DNA from: a virus
Taxonomy: Duplodnaviria > Caudoviricetes
IMG/VR virus record: IMGVR_UViG_3300016484_000638
Location: 1-57,234 of that record
Direction: 5' to 3' (one strand)
Length of the DNA stretch: 57,234 nucleotides
Positions 3,493 to 54,115 of the stretch are shown here, one piece after another. A program made the position numbers and the translations under genes. Within the stretch, counting starts at the first letter, position 1, and the number at the start of each line of letters is the position of its first letter. The notes under the pieces were generated by a model. That model did no database searches, was not told the DNA's origin, and worked only from the letters and a program-made list of their open reading frames with translations.

Positions 3493-3594
3493 TAGTCAGG
3501 ACAGGATTCGAACCTGTATGAGTGCCATTACTAAGATCTAGGACATACTCCAGGGCTTGTTTCCCTTGCGTCTACACTATTCCGCCACCTGACT
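3493..3594 (-). ncRNA. tRNA-like RNA (Leu-type D arm, aberrant anticodon arm, long variable region)
   Basis: AGTCAGG/CCTGACT acceptor; GCGGAATAGTGTAGACGC D arm; ACAGG-TTCGAAT-CCTGT T arm; loop AAACAAG lacks U33. Confidence 0.75.
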
Positions 3595-3698
3595 ATTTAC
3601 TTGTCTTTCCAAGTTGTCAAACAATTGTTAAAGCTAATTTAATAACCCAGCATTAATCTGTTAATAACCTCTACTCTGCATTGTTATGTCAGCAATCG

Positions 3699-3796
3699 TA
3701 GTCAGGACAGGATTCGAACCTGTATCATGTCGGCTAAGTGCCGTTTTTCGTATCACATAATAGATACTAAGTGCTAACCAATTACACCACCTAACT
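3699..3796 (-). ncRNA. tRNA-like RNA
   Basis: AGTTAGG/CCTGACT acceptor; T arm and 3' end identical to the 3493 copy; GTATC-TATTATGT-GATAC arm has an 8-nt loop. Confidence 0.75.
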
Positions 3797-10028: not shown

Positions 10029-12236
10029 TCATCGTATAAGTGTTAAATGTCCATGTATAATCTTACGAGAATCATTATATTCTGACCCGTATTCTATTTT
10101 CCAAATGTAAACCCCATCAAGACACATCTTATTATCGTAAGTACCGTCCCAACCAACAGTATGGTTATGTGATTCAAATACCATTTGACCCCATCTATTG
10201 ATTATAAATAAATTATAGTCATACATATCAAAACCATCAGTAAATACTGGTAACCAAATATTGTTAACCGCATCACCATCAGGTGTGAATGTGTTAGGTA
10301 TATAGATTAACTCTTGTGGACACTCTTCTATTGCAATAGTAGCTTGTTCTTCATTAGAAACACAACCATTAACTGTTTGGGAAACGCTGATAGTATAGAA
10401 ACCAACATTATTCCAAACATAAGGTAAATTATTATCTTGTATTGTATCACCTTCAACAACCCAGTCAAACAACCCAGACAAAGATGAATAAGCAGCATAA
10501 ACTCTAAAAATACTATCACCCTCACAAAGTTCACGAAATTCATAAGATGGTATTATAGATGTTATAATAGGTTGTGGGTTTACAATAACATTAATTGTTG
10601 TATCAAATGAACAGTTACTTTGTGTGTAAGTGTATGTTACGTTATTATTAGTTATAATACCTTGTTCTGGACAGAACTCATCAGTTTGAACTCCATTCAC
10701 CAAGAAAGTACCATTTAAAGGTGTACCAACCAAATCTACACAACCATCGTAATCACAAAAAGGCCCGATAGGGTCTATTGTTGGGTTTATATCTAAAACA
10801 AATGTAGTAAAGTAAGATGTATCACTACTACACCCATTAGGACTAACTGAATACACACTTACAGAGTCTTGATATAAACCACTAGGTTCTAATGACCAGT
10901 CCGTAGTTATAGTATCTGTACCCTGACCACCCAATAATTGGGGAGTAGTTGACCATACATAAGTGTAACCAGCACCCATAGAAGGTACGTTATAGGACTC
11001 TAAAGATGATAAGTAACATATTGTATCTGGACCGTTAATTGGGTTCATTATTATTTGTGGTGGATTAGTAAGGGTTACATTACCAGACACCGTACAACCA
11101 ATACCATCAGTAATTAAAAAACTATAATTACCACTACAAAGATTGTTTGGATTAAAAGAAGTTTGTAAGGTATTCCAGGATATTGTTGTCACACCATTAG
11201 TACCATTTGGAATTACGTTTATGTCACCATCACAAAAATTATGACATGTTGGATTGTTAAAAGTAACTATAGGTTGTGGTAAGTTAGGTGGTCCAGGTTG
11301 TACAAATACTGTATCAGGTCCAGGTCCCACTGAAGCATTACAAGTCGACCATCCAGCATTACAGGTTGGATAAACAAAATGACAAGTATAGTTAGCACCC
11401 GCAGTAGGTGGTGTAACAGTAATAGTCGGACCAGTACCAATTGGATTAGGATTACCAACTTGATACCAAGTTAGAACTGGATTAACAACAGGCCCACTTG
11501 GAGTCCATCTCCAAGAATCATTATTTGTTACCCAAGCAGTTGAGTTTCTACCAGGTACTGTAATACCAATAGTTCCAGCTAAATTATGAATACCCTGAAC
11601 TGCGGTTCCTCCTTGCCATTGAATACAAGCCGGTTTACTTTGTATATGATTTTCAATTACATTAGTAGATTCGTAAATAACAATATGGAACGTACCTTGA
11701 TTCCCAGTACAAGAGAACATAGGAACACCAACCCAACTAACTGTTAGTTTTCTACAAGGAGCCACACCTGAAGTTTGATATTTAATCTGGCCACCAAGTC
11801 CTGGATGCCAATCTTGCCAAGGACCCATTATACAATTTTTAGGTACTAACCCATTTCCAGTTGGTATTGTTTGTGAAGTAAACGTAGTAGGTTGAGCGGC
11901 TGAAAAAGATATCCACCCATTCGAACCGATATAAAATTGGGTATAAGTAGTTCCAAAGAAGCAAAAGTTAAATCCAATATTAAAAGGACCTTGTTGTGAA
12001 TCATCGGTCATAAAAACGTTAGTACCCGTATTGGTCTGAGCAACATATGGGATATTTGTTACACCATAGTTTGTTGTTTGGTTAGGGTTTGTACCTGCCA
12101 CACATTGTGATAAGTCAGCCGTTAATGTTGTTGACCCAACACCACAAGGTAATATCTGGTCTGGCCCTAAATAAGGACAATATTGTGAATAACCAAAAAA
12201 GGTTATAAAAATAAATAAATACTTTAATAATTTCAT
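10029..12236 (-). CDS. Secreted adhesin-like protein with T9SS type-B (gliding motility-associated, CHU_C) C-terminal domain
   Basis: Signal peptide; SprB-like repeat; 'YIPNTFTPDGDAVN...INRWG...WDG...DGVYIW...GHLTLIR'. Confidence 0.85.
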   Translation of the reverse strand: MKLLKYLFIFITFFGYSQYCPYLGPDQILPCGVGSTTLTADLSQCVAGTNPNQTTNYGVTNIPYVAQTNTGTNVFMTDDSQQGPFNIGFNFCFFGTTYTQFYIGSNGWISFSAAQPTTFTSQTIPTGNGLVPKNCIMGPWQDWHPGLGGQIKYQTSGVAPCRKLTVSWVGVPMFSCTGNQGTFHIVIYESTNVIENHIQSKPACIQWQGGTAVQGIHNLAGTIGITVPGRNSTAWVTNNDSWRWTPSGPVVNPVLTWYQVGNPNPIGTGPTITVTPPTAGANYTCHFVYPTCNAGWSTCNASVGPGPDTVFVQPGPPNLPQPIVTFNNPTCHNFCDGDINVIPNGTNGVTTISWNTLQTSFNPNNLCSGNYSFLITDGIGCTVSGNVTLTNPPQIIMNPINGPDTICYLSSLESYNVPSMGAGYTYVWSTTPQLLGGQGTDTITTDWSLEPSGLYQDSVSVYSVSPNGCSSDTSYFTTFVLDINPTIDPIGPFCDYDGCVDLVGTPLNGTFLVNGVQTDEFCPEQGIITNNNVTYTYTQSNCSFDTTINVIVNPQPIITSIIPSYEFRELCEGDSIFRVYAAYSSLSGLFDWVVEGDTIQDNNLPYVWNNVGFYTISVSQTVNGCVSNEEQATIAIEECPQELIYIPNTFTPDGDAVNNIWLPVFTDGFDMYDYNLFIINRWGQMVFESHNHTVGWDGTYDNKMCLDGVYIWKIEYGSEYNDSRKIIHGHLTLIR

Positions 12237-41413: not shown

Positions 41414-42029
41414 TGGTGGAGGCGGAGGGGTTCGTAAATAATCAATAATTTTCATTACTGTTTGGACTATATCATCATCTCATTGAGATGTTGGACGCTC
41501 TTGCTGGTTATTAAGTGTATCGCCACACTCCAGTAGTCTCTGCACCTTCTTACTCTGTAAGCTTGGCTCAGGATTGCCATCACCATTACGTGTTAAGGTT
41601 TCCCTGAATTCATCCAATTTTTAATCTATTGTCACCAATAGATGGGTCCGAAATCAAACCCTCGTCCTGCGTTACATTACTAACGTCTTCTACATGCTTA
41701 TTCCATTTTAATCTAAATGGACAAAATATTTGATTTATTCTTTACCATTGGAAATCAACAAACAATGGGTATCATTCGATTTTGGGTTCAATGATAATCC
41801 ACCACAACTACGACTTCTGTTGCTAGGTTATATGTCTGCCGACCCCGTAGTAACACCTAATCCGATTAGGCAGCTACTGTTGCACCTTCAGTCACAAAAT
41901 GACCTACAGTTGCGTTTGCGAATACGTCGCCGTTTAAAAGTTTCAATACGTGTATTAACGTGATAGTATTATTTCACGACATGCTTACCCATTACCAATC
42001 GTTAACCAGTCAAATCCAAAAACACCCCC
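41414..42029 (-). ncRNA. ssrA: tmRNA, intron-interrupted; tag (A)GDVFANATVGHFVTEGATVAA*
   Basis: GGGGGTG/CGCCTCC-ACCA acceptor with G3.U70; GGATTTGAC; GCATG..GCATGTAG; tag ORF ending AA-TAA. Confidence 0.95.
41435..41656 (-). mobile_element. Group I intron in tmRNA T loop (222 nt, no ORF)
   Basis: CAGAGACTA and GATATAGTCC (P7), GAATTCAGGGAA / AATCCTGAGC (P4), GAAA-capped P9, P1 GGGTT/GACCC. Confidence 0.9.
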
Positions 42030-48762: not shown

Positions 48763-48816
48763 ATTGTAAGACTATCTAAACTCCAAATGAGAACTTCGTC
48801 TTTTTTAGTTTTTTAG

Positions 48817-48903
48817 CTGATGGGGTGGGATTCGAACCCACGGTGGAGTATAACTCACCAGATTAACAGTCTGAACCCTTCGGCCAACTCGGGACACCCA
48901 TCA
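48817..48903 (-). tRNA. tRNA-Asn(GTT) with long variable arm
   Basis: TGATGGG/CCCATCA-G; loop CTGTTAA; 16-nt variable arm. Confidence 0.85.
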
Positions 48904-50934: not shown

Positions 50935-51009
50935 TAGCGGGGACAGGATTCGAACCTGTGATCTCTAGGTTATGAGCCTAGCGGGTTGACCAGCTACCAC
51001 TACCCCGCG
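50935..51009 (-). tRNA. tRNA-Met(CAT), initiator-like
   Basis: CGCGGGG with C1 x U72 mismatch; loop CTCATAA. Confidence 0.9.
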
Positions 51010-51507
51010 ATAATATTCTTTCATACGCTCTGATTGTTCATCTCTTTTAGATTTATCAGACCATCTTTGTTTTGCCTTTTCAGCTATCTTCTTTTTAGTT
51101 TCTTCAGATATGCCTCTTCTTCTATTAGACTCTGAAATTTTTTTTCTAGTTTCTTCTGAATGCTTTCTACCTTTTTGCATTTCAGAAAGTTTCTTTTTAG
51201 TTTCTTCTGAATGTTTTAAACCACTAAAATGTGGTCCACCCTCACCACCTAAACCAGTATTGTAAGTTTTATTTGTAGAAATAAATAATTCATTTACGAT
51301 TTCTTTTTCTTTATCATTCATTTCTTTTTCATTATCAAAAATGTACAATACTTCTTTTTTAAAATTTTCTTTACCGTATTGTTTTATAACATTTTTAATG
51401 ACTTTCCCACTACCAAAGTAGTTATCATAAGGATTGTTTGTTTGGTGCTTTCCAATATATGTTTTATCATTTAATTTATTAGTCACCTTATATATTGTAT
51501 ATTTCAT
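50965..51507 (-). mobile_element. GIY-YIG (Seg-like) homing endonuclease reading into tRNA-fMet
   Basis: TIYKVTN..YIGKH..YFGSG; C-terminus RGVVVAGQPARLIT is the tRNA 5' half. Confidence 0.85.
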
Positions 51508-51535
51508 ACATATAAATATACGGTAAGTAAATAAA

Positions 51536-51565
51536 CTAACGAGATACCAACTTCTCCACCCCACA
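51536..51565 (-). pseudogene. Stranded 5' half of a tRNA-fMet allele
   Basis: TGTGGGGTGGAGAAGTTGGTATCTCGTTAG. Confidence 0.75.
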
Positions 51566-51573
51566 ATATATTG

Positions 51574-51866
51574 TATCTAAGGAAGGATTCGAACCTCCAC
51601 GGACTTAATCAAAACTAGGTTTTTTTCAGTCCATACGTTTTACAAGAATTTAAGGATTTAATCTCATCTATTAAATCTATCTATCTTTATAATTATAAGT
51701 TGTCACGTTTGGGTTAAAGAGTAACGTAACCAAACCTCTTAACTAGTCTAATTTAGAGACCAATAAGGTTAGCTAATCCTAAAGTCTTTTTGGGTTTTTA
51801 TAGAACTCCCAATCTAACCTTAGACTCTCTTCAAACGTAAGCGTCTACCAATTCCGCCACTTAGAT
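51574..51866 (-). ncRNA. tRNA-scaffold RNA with ~190-nt insertion in place of anticodon loop
   Basis: ATCTAAG/CTTAGAT-A; TGGCGGAATTGGTAGACGC; TACGTTT/AAACGTA; GGAGG-TTCGAAT-CCTTC. Confidence 0.75.
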
Positions 51867-51882: not shown

Positions 51883-52542
51883 TTACAAAATAGTCCTACC
51901 CATTGACCAACCAACTGGTATGCTATCTGATTTTTTTATTTTTTTATTTTCAAATCCATTAGTTATCCAACAAGTCCCAAATTGGGAGTTATTTTCTCCT
52001 TTTTGTTTGATTGAATTTTTCTCACCTATCTTTTTTTTAGATTCTTCTTTGTGTTTTTTACCATAAAAGGTACCTTCTTTAATTTTTAAATTTTTTTTTA
52101 ATCCAAAACTAATAGATTTTTTCCAAAAATCAACCCACTCACTATTATTTTCTCTAAGAAATTTCATAGTTTTATGACTATTTTTTGTTGCTTGTTTTTG
52201 AGACAAGTTTAATGACTCAATAAATTTTTTTCTATGTTCCTCACCACTAAAACCACCATCACCACCTAATTTAAGGTTCATACAAAGTTCTTCAGATAAT
52301 AATTGTTCATTAACAATTTCTTTTTCTCTTTTTTTTAATTCTTTTCTGTTTTTTAAAAACTCAAGAATTTTTTTTGTATGATTTTCCTTTCCATGATAAT
52401 TAATAGAATACCATAATCTCTTTCCACTACCTAAGTATCCATCTTCCAAATTATCAGTAGAATGCATTCCTATGTAGTATTTCCCATTTACATTACAAGT
52501 TGTTTTATAAATGTAATGATATTTCTTTTGCCTTCTCGCCAT
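51883..52542 (-). mobile_element. GIY-YIG (Seg-like) homing endonuclease, paralog of 49090
   Basis: YIYKTTCNV..YYIGMH..YLGSG. Confidence 0.85.
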
Positions 52543-52590: not shown

Positions 52591-52700
52591 TACACAAGGA
52601 AGGATTCGAACCTCCAAAACCTACTTTCATCGCCCCTAGGGGAGATTACTTTTCGGTTAGAGTTGTTACACTCCGTGTTTACCAATTTCACCACTTGCGT
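52591..52700 (-). ncRNA. tRNA-like RNA
   Basis: ACGCAAG/CTTGTGT-A; Leu-type D arm; GAGT-GTAACA-ACTC 6-nt loop; variable region >40 nt. Confidence 0.7.
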
Positions 52701-53005: not shown

Positions 53006-54115
53006 TTAAAAATTCATTTTATAATTAGAAACATATGTAGGTAACTGATCAAAAGAAATCTGATATTGTTTAATAGGTGTGGCCCATAAACTTTGTTTAT
53101 ATTCGTATTGGTTTAATAAAAGTGTTTTATTTCCATAGTTTATATTCCTAATAATCCATTTAATATTATTATTAGGGTCCTCTTTAATGTATTGATTCGT
53201 ATAGTGTCTGTCTAATTTAAACCCTAAAGATTCTATTAAATTAATGAAATCTTTATAAGGTTTCAAAACACCCTCTTCATCTAAAATTTCTTCTGCTTTA
53301 TCTAAAAATTCATTAAATGCATCAGCAATTTCATCTTCAGCACCAGAAAGATCCCATTCTTGGTAAAATCCATCATACCAGTTTTCATCAATTAAAGTAC
53401 TTGATGTTATTTTTAAAATATCAGTTAGTGATACTATATTTTTTTCATGTAATTTAAAAATTTCTGTCATAGAAATTTTAATTACAATCTCACCATTACG
53501 TAATTTAAAAGATGAGTTAATTTTGTCTAAAATAGATGAAAAATGTGAACCACTACTCAACCATCTATTTTTTTGTATCTGATAACCTATAATATCTAAA
53601 TAACGAACACGTAAATCGTCAAATAATTTTTGTAATGGTTCATATTTTAAAACTGCTTTAACACTATTCATATCGTCATCAGCGAAAGCAGAAAAGTTAG
53701 TGCCAGGTGATGTTACATCTAATATTCTTTGGAATCTTTCTTTTTGGTCATCGTTGATTTGGTAGCCAGAATAATCGAACTCCTCATAGTCAAAGTCATA
53801 ATAATCACCATTACCGTCATAATTAGGACCATATGTTAAAAATGGTTCAAGATAACTTTGGTCGTCCTCATTAATATCAGAAAAATCTACCCAATCTTCA
53901 TAGTCTAAAACAAATGTTATATTATCGTCATTTATATTAACTTGACAATCACTACCTGAGTTAAAACATATGTCATCATCATTAAAGTAATTACCTGTGG
54001 TAAAAGGGTTTACATCACTAACCCAATCCCAGTCATCTTTATGATATTCACTTTCTAAAGATTCTCTAATAACTTTTTTAATAATATTTTTTGATAGAGG
54101 TTTTTTAAATTTCAC
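53006..54115 (-). CDS. ILKE/DW-tag protein
   Basis: IIKKVIRESLE..DDWDW. Confidence 0.7.
   Translation of the reverse strand: MKFKKPLSKNIIKKVIRESLESEYHKDDWDWVSDVNPFTTGNYFNDDDICFNSGSDCQVNINDDNITFVLDYEDWVDFSDINEDDQSYLEPFLTYGPNYDGNGDYYDFDYEEFDYSGYQINDDQKERFQRILDVTSPGTNFSAFADDDMNSVKAVLKYEPLQKLFDDLRVRYLDIIGYQIQKNRWLSSGSHFSSILDKINSSFKLRNGEIVIKISMTEIFKLHEKNIVSLTDILKITSSTLIDENWYDGFYQEWDLSGAEDEIADAFNEFLDKAEEILDEEGVLKPYKDFINLIESLGFKLDRHYTNQYIKEDPNNNIKWIIRNINYGNKTLLLNQYEYKQSLWATPIKQYQISFDQLPTYVSNYKMNF

Follow-up and report, generated by a model that had tools for sequence, protein, structure and literature searches.

The anticodon loop is the classical site of introns in bacterial transfer RNA (tRNA) genes, and group I introns reside there in the tRNA-Leu(UAA) genes of cyanobacteria and plastids and in the tRNA-Ile gene of Azoarcus. 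In engineered tRNA scaffolds, a structured RNA is placed at the anticodon stem, and the tRNA body provides processing and stability. The tRNA cluster of phage T4 encodes two stable RNAs without a decoding role, species 1 and 2, to which no function is assigned, and genes for Seg-type GIY-YIG endonucleases lie within that array. We describe herein a phage gene that shares features with all of these systems. It is found in the IMG/VR virus record IMGVR_UViG_3300016484_000638, a stretch of 57,234 bases that is estimated to be 20% complete and is referred to below, at its full length, as the window. The gene occupies positions 51866..51574 on the minus strand (293 nucleotides, nt); the outer arms of a Leu-type tRNA are intact in it, and a structured insert of 190 nt stands in the anticodon loop.

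Like the group I introns of tRNA genes, this insert is pseudoknotted, measures about 200 nt and sits in a Leu-type anticodon loop, with a U before it, a G as its last base and the anticodon stem retained. Unlike them, it has no match to the group I intron model RF00028, no P1, no P4-P6 and no R...S order, and its ligated loop would be 6 nt. Like transfer-messenger RNA (tmRNA; RF00023), the gene has a tRNA-like frame in which a large pseudoknotted domain takes the place of the middle; unlike tmRNA, it keeps a full D arm, anticodon stem and variable arm, and it has C3-G70 (A3-U70 in its homologue), no G3-U70 and no conserved tag frame. A tmRNA is matured like a tRNA, and the same maturation may apply here. 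As in the engineered scaffolds, a structured RNA is located at a tRNA anticodon stem, but unlike the man-made constructs the present one is natural, is conserved between two phage lineages and is built on a body of type II (Leu) whose variable arm is enlarged. The likeness to species 1 and 2 of T4, drawn from their description only, lies in the position within a phage tRNA array that holds GIY-YIG-like genes; those RNAs, unlike the present one, are not full tRNA cloverleaves with an insert.

According to the available portion of one report, all phage introns observed up to 2014 were in protein-coding genes, despite the many tRNA genes of phages (PMC3984707). The portions available of two other papers likewise mention phage introns in protein genes only (PMC7886860, PMC7824862). 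A literature search that covered articles in part, without their supplements, gave no description of a phage tRNA gene with an insert of this kind.

Results

tRNA frame and position of the insert

Read on the minus strand, the gene contains the following parts.

51866-51860 with 51581-51575, minus strand: acceptor stem AUCUAAG/CUUAGAU, 7 base pairs (bp), assigned by reading
51857-51841, minus strand: Leu-type D arm GCGGAAUUGGUAGACGC, preceded by U8 G9 and followed by U26
51839-51835 with 51638-51634, minus strand: anticodon stem UACGU/ACGUA, with UU 3' of its first strand
51833..51866, minus strand: 5' part of the frame, positions 1-33/34
51832..51643, minus strand: insert, 190 nt, with nt 1 at 51832 (G) and nt 190 at 51643 (G)
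51574..51642, minus strand: 3' part of the frame, starting with UAAA
51632-51601, minus strand: variable arm GGACU/AGUCC, with a 22-nt loop and an inner hairpin AAAAC-CUA-GUUUU
51598-51582, minus strand: T arm GGAGG-UUCGAAU-CCUUC
51574, minus strand: discriminator A, with CCA not encoded

An initial annotation, made from the letters of the DNA, had proposed that the acceptor, the Leu-type D arm, the variable arm and the T arm were intact, and that an anticodon stem UACGUUU/AAACGUA enclosed an insert of about 190 nt; the minus-strand reading bears out both proposals. The D arm has a sequence typical of bacterial tRNA-Leu, the variable arm is enlarged (32 nt), and the anticodon stem is extendable to the longer form just given. 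The insert is placed between U33 and the UAAA-ACGUA of the anticodon arm; it begins with GAAGAGAGUCUAAGG and ends with CCUUAAAUUCUUG, and its length becomes 189 nt if one G is assigned to anticodon-loop base 34. When the whole 293 nt was folded, the free energy was -72.2 kcal/mol, compared with -59.65 +/- 4.26 kcal/mol for shuffled sequences (z = -2.95), and 1 of 200 shuffles was as good.

The gene went uncalled by ARAGORN in default mode (0 of 14 calls at the locus). In intron mode, the program placed a tRNA interrupted by a 200-nt intron at c[51573,51866]; the amino-acid label that it gave there is unreliable. The tRNA model RF00005 gave 16.4 bits on the gene (gathering score 29) in a false register, with 196 nt standing where a 7-nt loop belongs.

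Conservation in a sister phage lineage

A homologue of 287 nt (L009:1282-1568) is present in a related phage lineage, in identical copies (four loci in total). Synteny links this sister lineage to the window, with a nucleotide identity of about 80-85%, and the window gene and its homologue are the two distinct sequences on which all comparisons below are based. The exons differ at 7 of 103 nt (93% identical), and all five of the exon differences that fall in stems preserve pairing. The acceptor pair C3-G70 of the window is A3-U70 in the homologue, a compensatory change, and each substitution in the anticodon stem, the variable stem or the T stem is an exchange between G-C and G-U; the 5' frame part is identical to L009:1282-1315 except for C3 to A. 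Within the insert, 153 of 180 aligned columns are identical (85%), with five indel events. The 4-fold degenerate sites of a neighbouring gene of 262 amino acids (aa) are identical at 38 of 58 positions (66%), which differs from the insert at p = 0.002 and from the exons at p = 1.3e-5 (Fisher). Both parts are more conserved than these sites, which shows that frame and insert are both under purifying selection. All five indels of the insert lie outside the stems of the covariance-model structure, a structure that was picked with the alignment in view. One copy of the insert occurs in the window record, and one in each of four sister-lineage records; the same copy search in a fifth record (G004) gave just a 14-nt match, with an expectation value (E) of 0.048.

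Helices of the insert

The helices of the insert are as follows, numbered from its first nucleotide.

Insert 103-110 with 124-131 (51702..51730, minus strand): helix GUUACGUU/AACGUGAC
Insert 93-97 with 112-116 (51717..51740, minus strand): helix AAGAG/CUCUU
Insert 46-50/72-76 around 53-57/63-67 (51757..51787, minus strand): hairpin AGACU/GGUCU around AGGAU/AACCU
Insert 156-163 with 171-178 (51655..51677, minus strand): hairpin GAUUUAAU/AUUAAAUC
Insert 4-8/185-189 and 11-14/179-182 (51644..51829, minus strand): end pairing GAGAG/UUCUU plus UAAG/CUUA, from the RNAalifold consensus

Helix GUUACGUU/AACGUGAC has 8 of 8 pairs in the window and in the homologue, with U-G changed to U-A, G-C to G-U and U-A to G-C, the last of these being compensatory. 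Helix AAGAG/CUCUU (5 of 5 pairs) is invariant in both sequences, and hence covariation speaks neither for nor against it. Its CUCUU strand sits within the loop of GUUACGUU/AACGUGAC, so that the two helices interleave as a pseudoknot, which supports the pseudoknotting suggested at the outset. A second AAGAG (insert 2-6) and a YUCUU (insert 185-189) permit alternative pairings. The hairpin at 46-76 shows changes of U-G to C-G, of G-C to A-U (compensatory) and of A.A to U-A. It competes with helix AAGGUUAG/CUAACCUU, in which all eight pairs form in the window and the homologue alike, a single G-C having become G-U. This helix and the hairpin GAUUUAAU/AUUAAAUC, also 8 of 8 in both, are the two that the initial annotation had named; the stem of the latter is invariant, and its loop differs in the homologue, with a 4-nt indel. 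Compensatory changes are found in two helices of the insert. A comparison with homologues had been proposed as a check that might reveal no covariation, and it returned these changes in the single homologue available.

The end pairing prolongs the anticodon stem past a 3x3 internal loop (GAA/GUA), and 5 of 5 pairs are kept in both sequences with changes of G-U to A-U and of G-U to G-C. Over the whole RNAalifold consensus, 77 of 77 pairs hold, and three pairs are changed on both sides. As for the interleaved pairings annotated earlier, GUUACGUU/AACGUGAC stands in full, but UUAAGAG/CUCUUUAA is retained only in its core AAGAG/CUCUU (outer pairs 3 of 3 in the window and 1 of 3 in the homologue), and GUUUGG/CCAAAC falls from 6 of 6 pairs in the window to 5 of 6 in the homologue. 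No conserved open reading frame (ORF) was found in the six frames of the insert, and no small ORF, promoter-like site or terminator-like site was found within it on the strand of the gene.

Tests against known introns and RNA families

Rfam searches of short stretches around the gene and its homologue (1501, 301 and 295 nt; E <= 10) returned a weak mis-registered tRNA match and noise only, so that the Rfam check proposed with the initial annotation found no known intron model at the insert. In a direct search of four records with RF00028, in which five window candidates were scored, there was no match at the gene (E <= 1). The only match was a 223-nt group I intron at 41443-41665 (minus strand), which scores 99 bits and carries canonical GCAGAGACUAC and GAUAUAGUCC elements, including TATAGTC. 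The score of this real intron indicates that RF00028 is usable on this A+T-rich genome. By these searches, the insert is no known intron and belongs to no curated RNA family. A gathering-mode Rfam scan of the whole window reported tRNAs only; because it missed the group I intron and a tmRNA that were found later, its silence at the gene has no weight alone. Negatives of whole-window scans in A+T-rich sequence are untrustworthy by themselves.

The hallmarks of a group I intron were also sought by reading. The absence of TATAGTC from the insert, already annotated, is correct, and no S element lies downstream of the R-like motif; the real group I intron of the window has TATAGTC. No complement to ACGUUU that could act as a P1 guide is found in the 11 nt ahead of the first long helix. 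The sole complement, CAAACGU (insert 122-128), shares bases with the covarying helix, and one of its pairs is lost in the homologue. No P4-P6 domain was seen, and a 5-bp hairpin stands in its place. An S-like AGUCU lies upstream of an R-like AGACU, which is the reversed order, and 3 of 5 of their pairs form in the homologue. An alternative P7 (AGACU/GGUUU) can be drawn, but it is weak and depends on wobble pairs. A reversed group I core, with GAAGAGAGUCU upstream of UUAGACUAG, was rejected on the ground that its pairing is broken in the homologue, and a pattern for this pair of motifs gave one chance match in viral contigs, in a coding region.

The possible products of splicing were also considered. 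G190 is present in both sequences, and a U precedes the insert. Ligation of U33 to the base that follows G190 would produce UACGU-UUUAAA-ACGUA, with a 6-nt loop. The only 7-nt loops obtainable are UUGUAAA (anticodon GUA) and UUGAAAA/UUGAAGA (GAA), which misfit a Leu-type body. A bulge-helix-bulge intron, which would show a 4-bp helix between two 3-nt bulges at its splice sites, was rejected, the junction being a symmetric 3x3 internal loop (GAA/GUA) between helices. The splicing endonuclease EndA (PF01974) and RtcB (PF01139) were each found in 0 of four phage records, which is weak evidence in records that are 20-70% complete.

Two other candidates were set aside. A tmRNA-like reading fails on the lack of the G3-U70 alanine identity, the lack of a tmRNA match at the gene and the presence of the phage's own tmRNA; a short frame in the insert, GCU AAC CUU AUU GGU CUC UAA, has changes that are also explicable by helix covariation. 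A miniature inverted-repeat transposable element (MITE) was rejected: the inverted ends are imperfect, and the element is single-copy and was not found in 49 other records; the 3-nt UUG occurs at both insert junctions, and the terminal inverted repeat AAGAG..UAAGG / CCUUA..YUCUU is imperfect.

Searches for further homologues

An exon-junction pattern found seven loci in viral contigs, four being the 287-nt homologue and three chance matches. From a wider viral-contig pattern, 82 of 83 stretches were examined, of which 12 had a paired acceptor (nine distinct), with no new homologue among them. Another viral-contig pattern also yielded 83 stretches, among which only the sister lineage was similar by blastn. 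Two further IMG/VR patterns gave four loci each, with nothing beyond the sister lineage or chance. There were two matches, both by chance, in a metagenome scan and 0 in a genome_contigs scan. When the GenBank phages were searched by blastn, three records matched, in an endonuclease ORF only, and two relatives of 635 kb and 642 kb showed no match to the gene. A blastn sample of 50 related records was drawn from 80 loci kept by way of a 735-aa protein described below, with about 27 short records left out; six of the 50 matched, and their matches were confined to exon parts. With a covariance model of the insert, 50 records were searched (47 of these related records, two large GenBank phages and the sister phage as control): only the control matched (E 4.5e-45), and the best of the other 49 reached E 0.146.

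Genome setting and neighbouring genes

The window has a G+C content of about 29%, and most of its genes are on the minus strand. On that strand, a tRNA gene array extends over 42.9-52.7 kb of the window, with ORFs resembling GIY-YIG/NUMOD3 homing endonucleases mixed in. The neighbours of the gene are as follows.

51883..52542, minus strand: upstream ORF, 219 aa; Pfam GIY-YIG at 17 bits, below the cut-off of 22.6
50965..51564, minus strand: downstream ORF, 199 aa; NUMOD3 at 35.1 bits (cut-off 20.4)
52591..52700, minus strand: paralogous Leu-type tRNA-like gene, 110 nt; RF00005 at 36.7 bits

Both ORFs are missing from the sister phage, in which the neighbouring tRNA-like gene sits 63 nt from the homologue. 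The 199-aa ORF also scores 20.8 bits with SegE_GIY-YIG and 18.3 bits with GIY-YIG, both below the cut-offs. At 51563-51541 (minus strand) is a 23-nt 5' fragment of an elongator-type tRNA-Met gene that is intact in the sister phage; in the window, this NUMOD3/GIY-YIG-like ORF follows the fragment, and the 3' end of the ORF overlaps a different, initiator-like tRNA-Met (51009-50934). An endonuclease cassette seems to have taken the place of most of the elongator-type tRNA-Met gene. The segment 52703-54411, which is missing from the sister phage between two syntenic blocks, looks like an insertion and contains an ORF of 369 aa (53006-54115) without a significant Pfam family.

The paralogue at 52591-52700 shares the T arm with the 293-nt gene (21-nt identity). 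Its anticodon hairpin, GGAGU-GUAACA-ACUCU, has a loop of 6 nt, or of 8 nt if the stem is taken as 4 bp, and the variable region measures 42 nt. The sister phage has a homologue of 91% identity, in which an extra hairpin shows a compensatory change of C-G to A-U; the intron model of ARAGORN for this gene is not kept there. The sister phage record (70% complete) contains 25 normal tRNAs by ARAGORN, including two Tyr-GUA, Phe-GAA, Leu-UAA and Leu-UAG. As normal tRNA-Tyr, tRNA-Phe and tRNA-Leu are encoded there, the 293-nt gene is redundant as a decoder, any anticodon that splicing could restore being supplied already.

Two more Leu-type frames are located in the window at 3493-3594 and 3698-3796 (minus strand), the second with an 8-nt loop according to ARAGORN. 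Leu-type frames, defined by a Leu-type D arm with a matching acceptor stem and T arm, were surveyed among the fetched loci, a sample that is biased by the fetching, and 54 distinct genes were obtained. About 30 of them are ordinary tRNA-Leu genes of 74-86 nt. About 20 combine an AGUCAGG-like acceptor and the T arm ACAGGUUCGAAUCCUGU with centres of 36-220 nt that are mutually unrelated and show no regular anticodon arm by reading. These non-standard frames, a widespread set to which the two window frames just given, L044, L050, L055, L078, L301, L304, L305, L307 and others belong, are often in tandem, and some have CUA, CAA or UAG triplets at loop-like positions. The centre of about 220 nt in L078 has no Rfam match. 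In two distant relatives, frames of 110 nt and 122 nt stand directly upstream of tRNA-Met, which is the place of the homologue in the sister phage.

A tmRNA gene is found at 41639-42029 (minus strand; RF00023 46.6 bits, gathering score 47, E 4.5e-17). It was missed by ARAGORN, and its T loop is interrupted by the group I intron at 41443-41665. The tmRNA of the sister phage is uninterrupted and has the tag ANATVGHFVTEGATVAA followed by a stop (*), and RF00028 is unmatched (E <= 1) in three sister-lineage records. At 48816-48903 (minus strand) lies an 88-nt tRNA of type II. Its variable arm is long, it has G73 and the anticodon GUU (Asn), and its D arm resembles the Tyr type; the anticodon may have shifted.

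A protein of 735 aa, encoded at 10029-12236 (minus strand), carries a CHU_C type IX secretion signal domain (50.3 bits) and a PKD-like domain. The CHU_C domain suggests a Bacteroidota host for the phage. Over 98% of its length, the protein shares 55.5% identity with a protein of the 635-kb uncultured phage LR745206.1, and its relatives are encoded in at least 203 IMG/VR stretches. These relatives indicate a large family of big phages, with Bacteroidota as probable hosts.

Discussion

Judged from the comparisons above, the 293-nt gene is a real, conserved and structured feature. The reading that we rank first, tentatively and at a probability of about 0.4, is that of a stable, non-spliced Leu-type tRNA frame that would present a conserved pseudoknotted domain of 190 nt. 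We favor it because frame and cargo are constrained, the hallmarks of introns are missing, decoding is redundant and the variable arm is enlarged; because nearby Leu-type frames have non-standard centres that are too short for ribozyme introns; and because a splice of the group I type would leave a 6-nt loop. The initial annotation had offered either a natural tRNA-scaffolded domain or an unusual intron. The lack of a match to any known intron model and the covariation in one homologue lend that proposal partial support, and between its two halves the context leans towards a scaffold. As a scaffold, the product would be a chimeric RNA in which the anticodon stem of a Leu-type frame ends in a multi-helix domain, and it would presumably be transcribed together with the tRNA array. 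Because the parts that are read by processing enzymes (acceptor, D and T) are intact, its ends may be matured as in a tRNA, by RNase P at the 5' end and by trimming and CCA addition at the 3' end. The L-shaped frame would then shield and present the inserted domain, which might be the working part and bind a protein or an RNA. Leucylation might even occur, since bacterial leucyl-tRNA synthetase is not known to read the anticodon.

A number of observations weigh against this reading. The position of the insert is exactly that of the anticodon loop, with U as the last base of the 5' flank and G as the last base of the insert. As in an intron, U32 U33 and bases like A37 A38 are retained, and the ends of the insert pair and bring the junctions together. 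The phage carries a group I intron of the self-splicing type and homing-endonuclease-like genes. The covariation is thin, being drawn from two distinct sequences, and the observed covariation values were equalled by 54 of 500 shuffles in a shuffle control. The minimum-free-energy folds of the two single inserts disagree over much of their length: with the window fold projected on the homologue, five pairs are broken and eight fall in gaps, and the reverse projection breaks seven. Moreover, the presumed cargo domain has no assigned partner or function.

We rank second, as somewhat unlikely, an intron of a type that has not been described. It could be a self-splicing ribozyme, new or extremely reduced, or else an intervening sequence that host or phage proteins remove. 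Its excision would give a type II tRNA with a 7-nt loop, UUGUAAA (GUA) or UUGAAAA/UUGAAGA (GAA). The position in the anticodon loop with the stem and U32 U33 / A37 A38 kept, the paired ends, the conserved pseudoknotted core with its compensatory changes and the G that ends the insert in both sequences would all be accounted for; so would a partial group-I-like topology, AAGGUUAG...AGACU...CUAACCUU...hairpin...GGUUU, that can be drawn by reading. The phage has, in addition, a group I intron in another tRNA-like gene (tmRNA), and with two Tyr genes in the sister phage, redundancy is compatible with a decoder role. Nevertheless, no intron or ribozyme family of Rfam is matched in the short-stretch searches, a P1 guide is lacking near the 5' end and a single short hairpin stands for P4-P6, and the R/S-like motifs are misordered and keep 3 of 5 pairs in the homologue. 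Neither does a protein-removed intron find a bulge-helix-bulge at the junction, or RtcB and a tRNA-splicing endonuclease in the four partial phage records (0 of 4). The obtainable anticodons misfit the Leu-type D arm, and the adjacent paralogue has an aberrant loop without a long insert. Quite unlikely, in our view, is the more specific case of a ribozyme of an undescribed class, outside groups I and II, that splices or processes itself and whose two splice sites would be held together by the prolonged anticodon stem. We regard as highly improbable a group I intron of the canonical kind that has diverged and that, like those of cyanobacteria and plastids, splices to give tRNA-Leu(UAA). It would suit the Leu-type anticodon-loop site, the U before and the G at the end, the length of about 190 nt and an AGACUAG motif like part of an R element, but RF00028 is unmatched at the gene (E <= 10 in short stretches, E <= 1 in the direct search) even though the window's own intron scores 99 bits. 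No S element downstream of the R-like motif, no P1 and no P4-P6 are present, the splice leaves the 6-nt loop UUUAAA, and a normal tRNA-Leu(UAA) already exists in the sister phage.

The remaining explanation is a dead or decaying duplicate tRNA gene that was hit by a MITE-like DNA element and makes no functional RNA. The inverted repeat that the ends of the insert form, imperfectly (AAGAG..UAAGG / CCUUA..YUCUU), and the occurrence of UUG at each junction point in this direction, as do the redundancy with normal tRNAs, the mobile endonuclease-like genes that crowd the locus and the fast turnover of the centres of related tRNA-like frames. We regard it as unlikely, since the exons are 93% identical with each stem change preserving a pair, the insert is significantly more conserved than the 4-fold sites, and the element is single-copy, with no extra copy found by the IMG/VR patterns or by the covariance model in 49 other records.

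If the insert is spliced out, a phage tRNA gene would contain an intron, and this intron would lack the hallmarks of group I; according to the available portion of PMC3984707, introns of any kind had not been seen in phage tRNA genes up to 2014. If it stays unspliced, the gene would offer a natural parallel to the engineered tRNA scaffold, with the phage using the body of a tRNA as the chassis for a functional domain of RNA. The approximately 20 of 54 Leu-type frames with non-standard centres hint at a whole family of such frames in large phages with Bacteroidota as probable hosts, which would raise the question of what the cargos bind.

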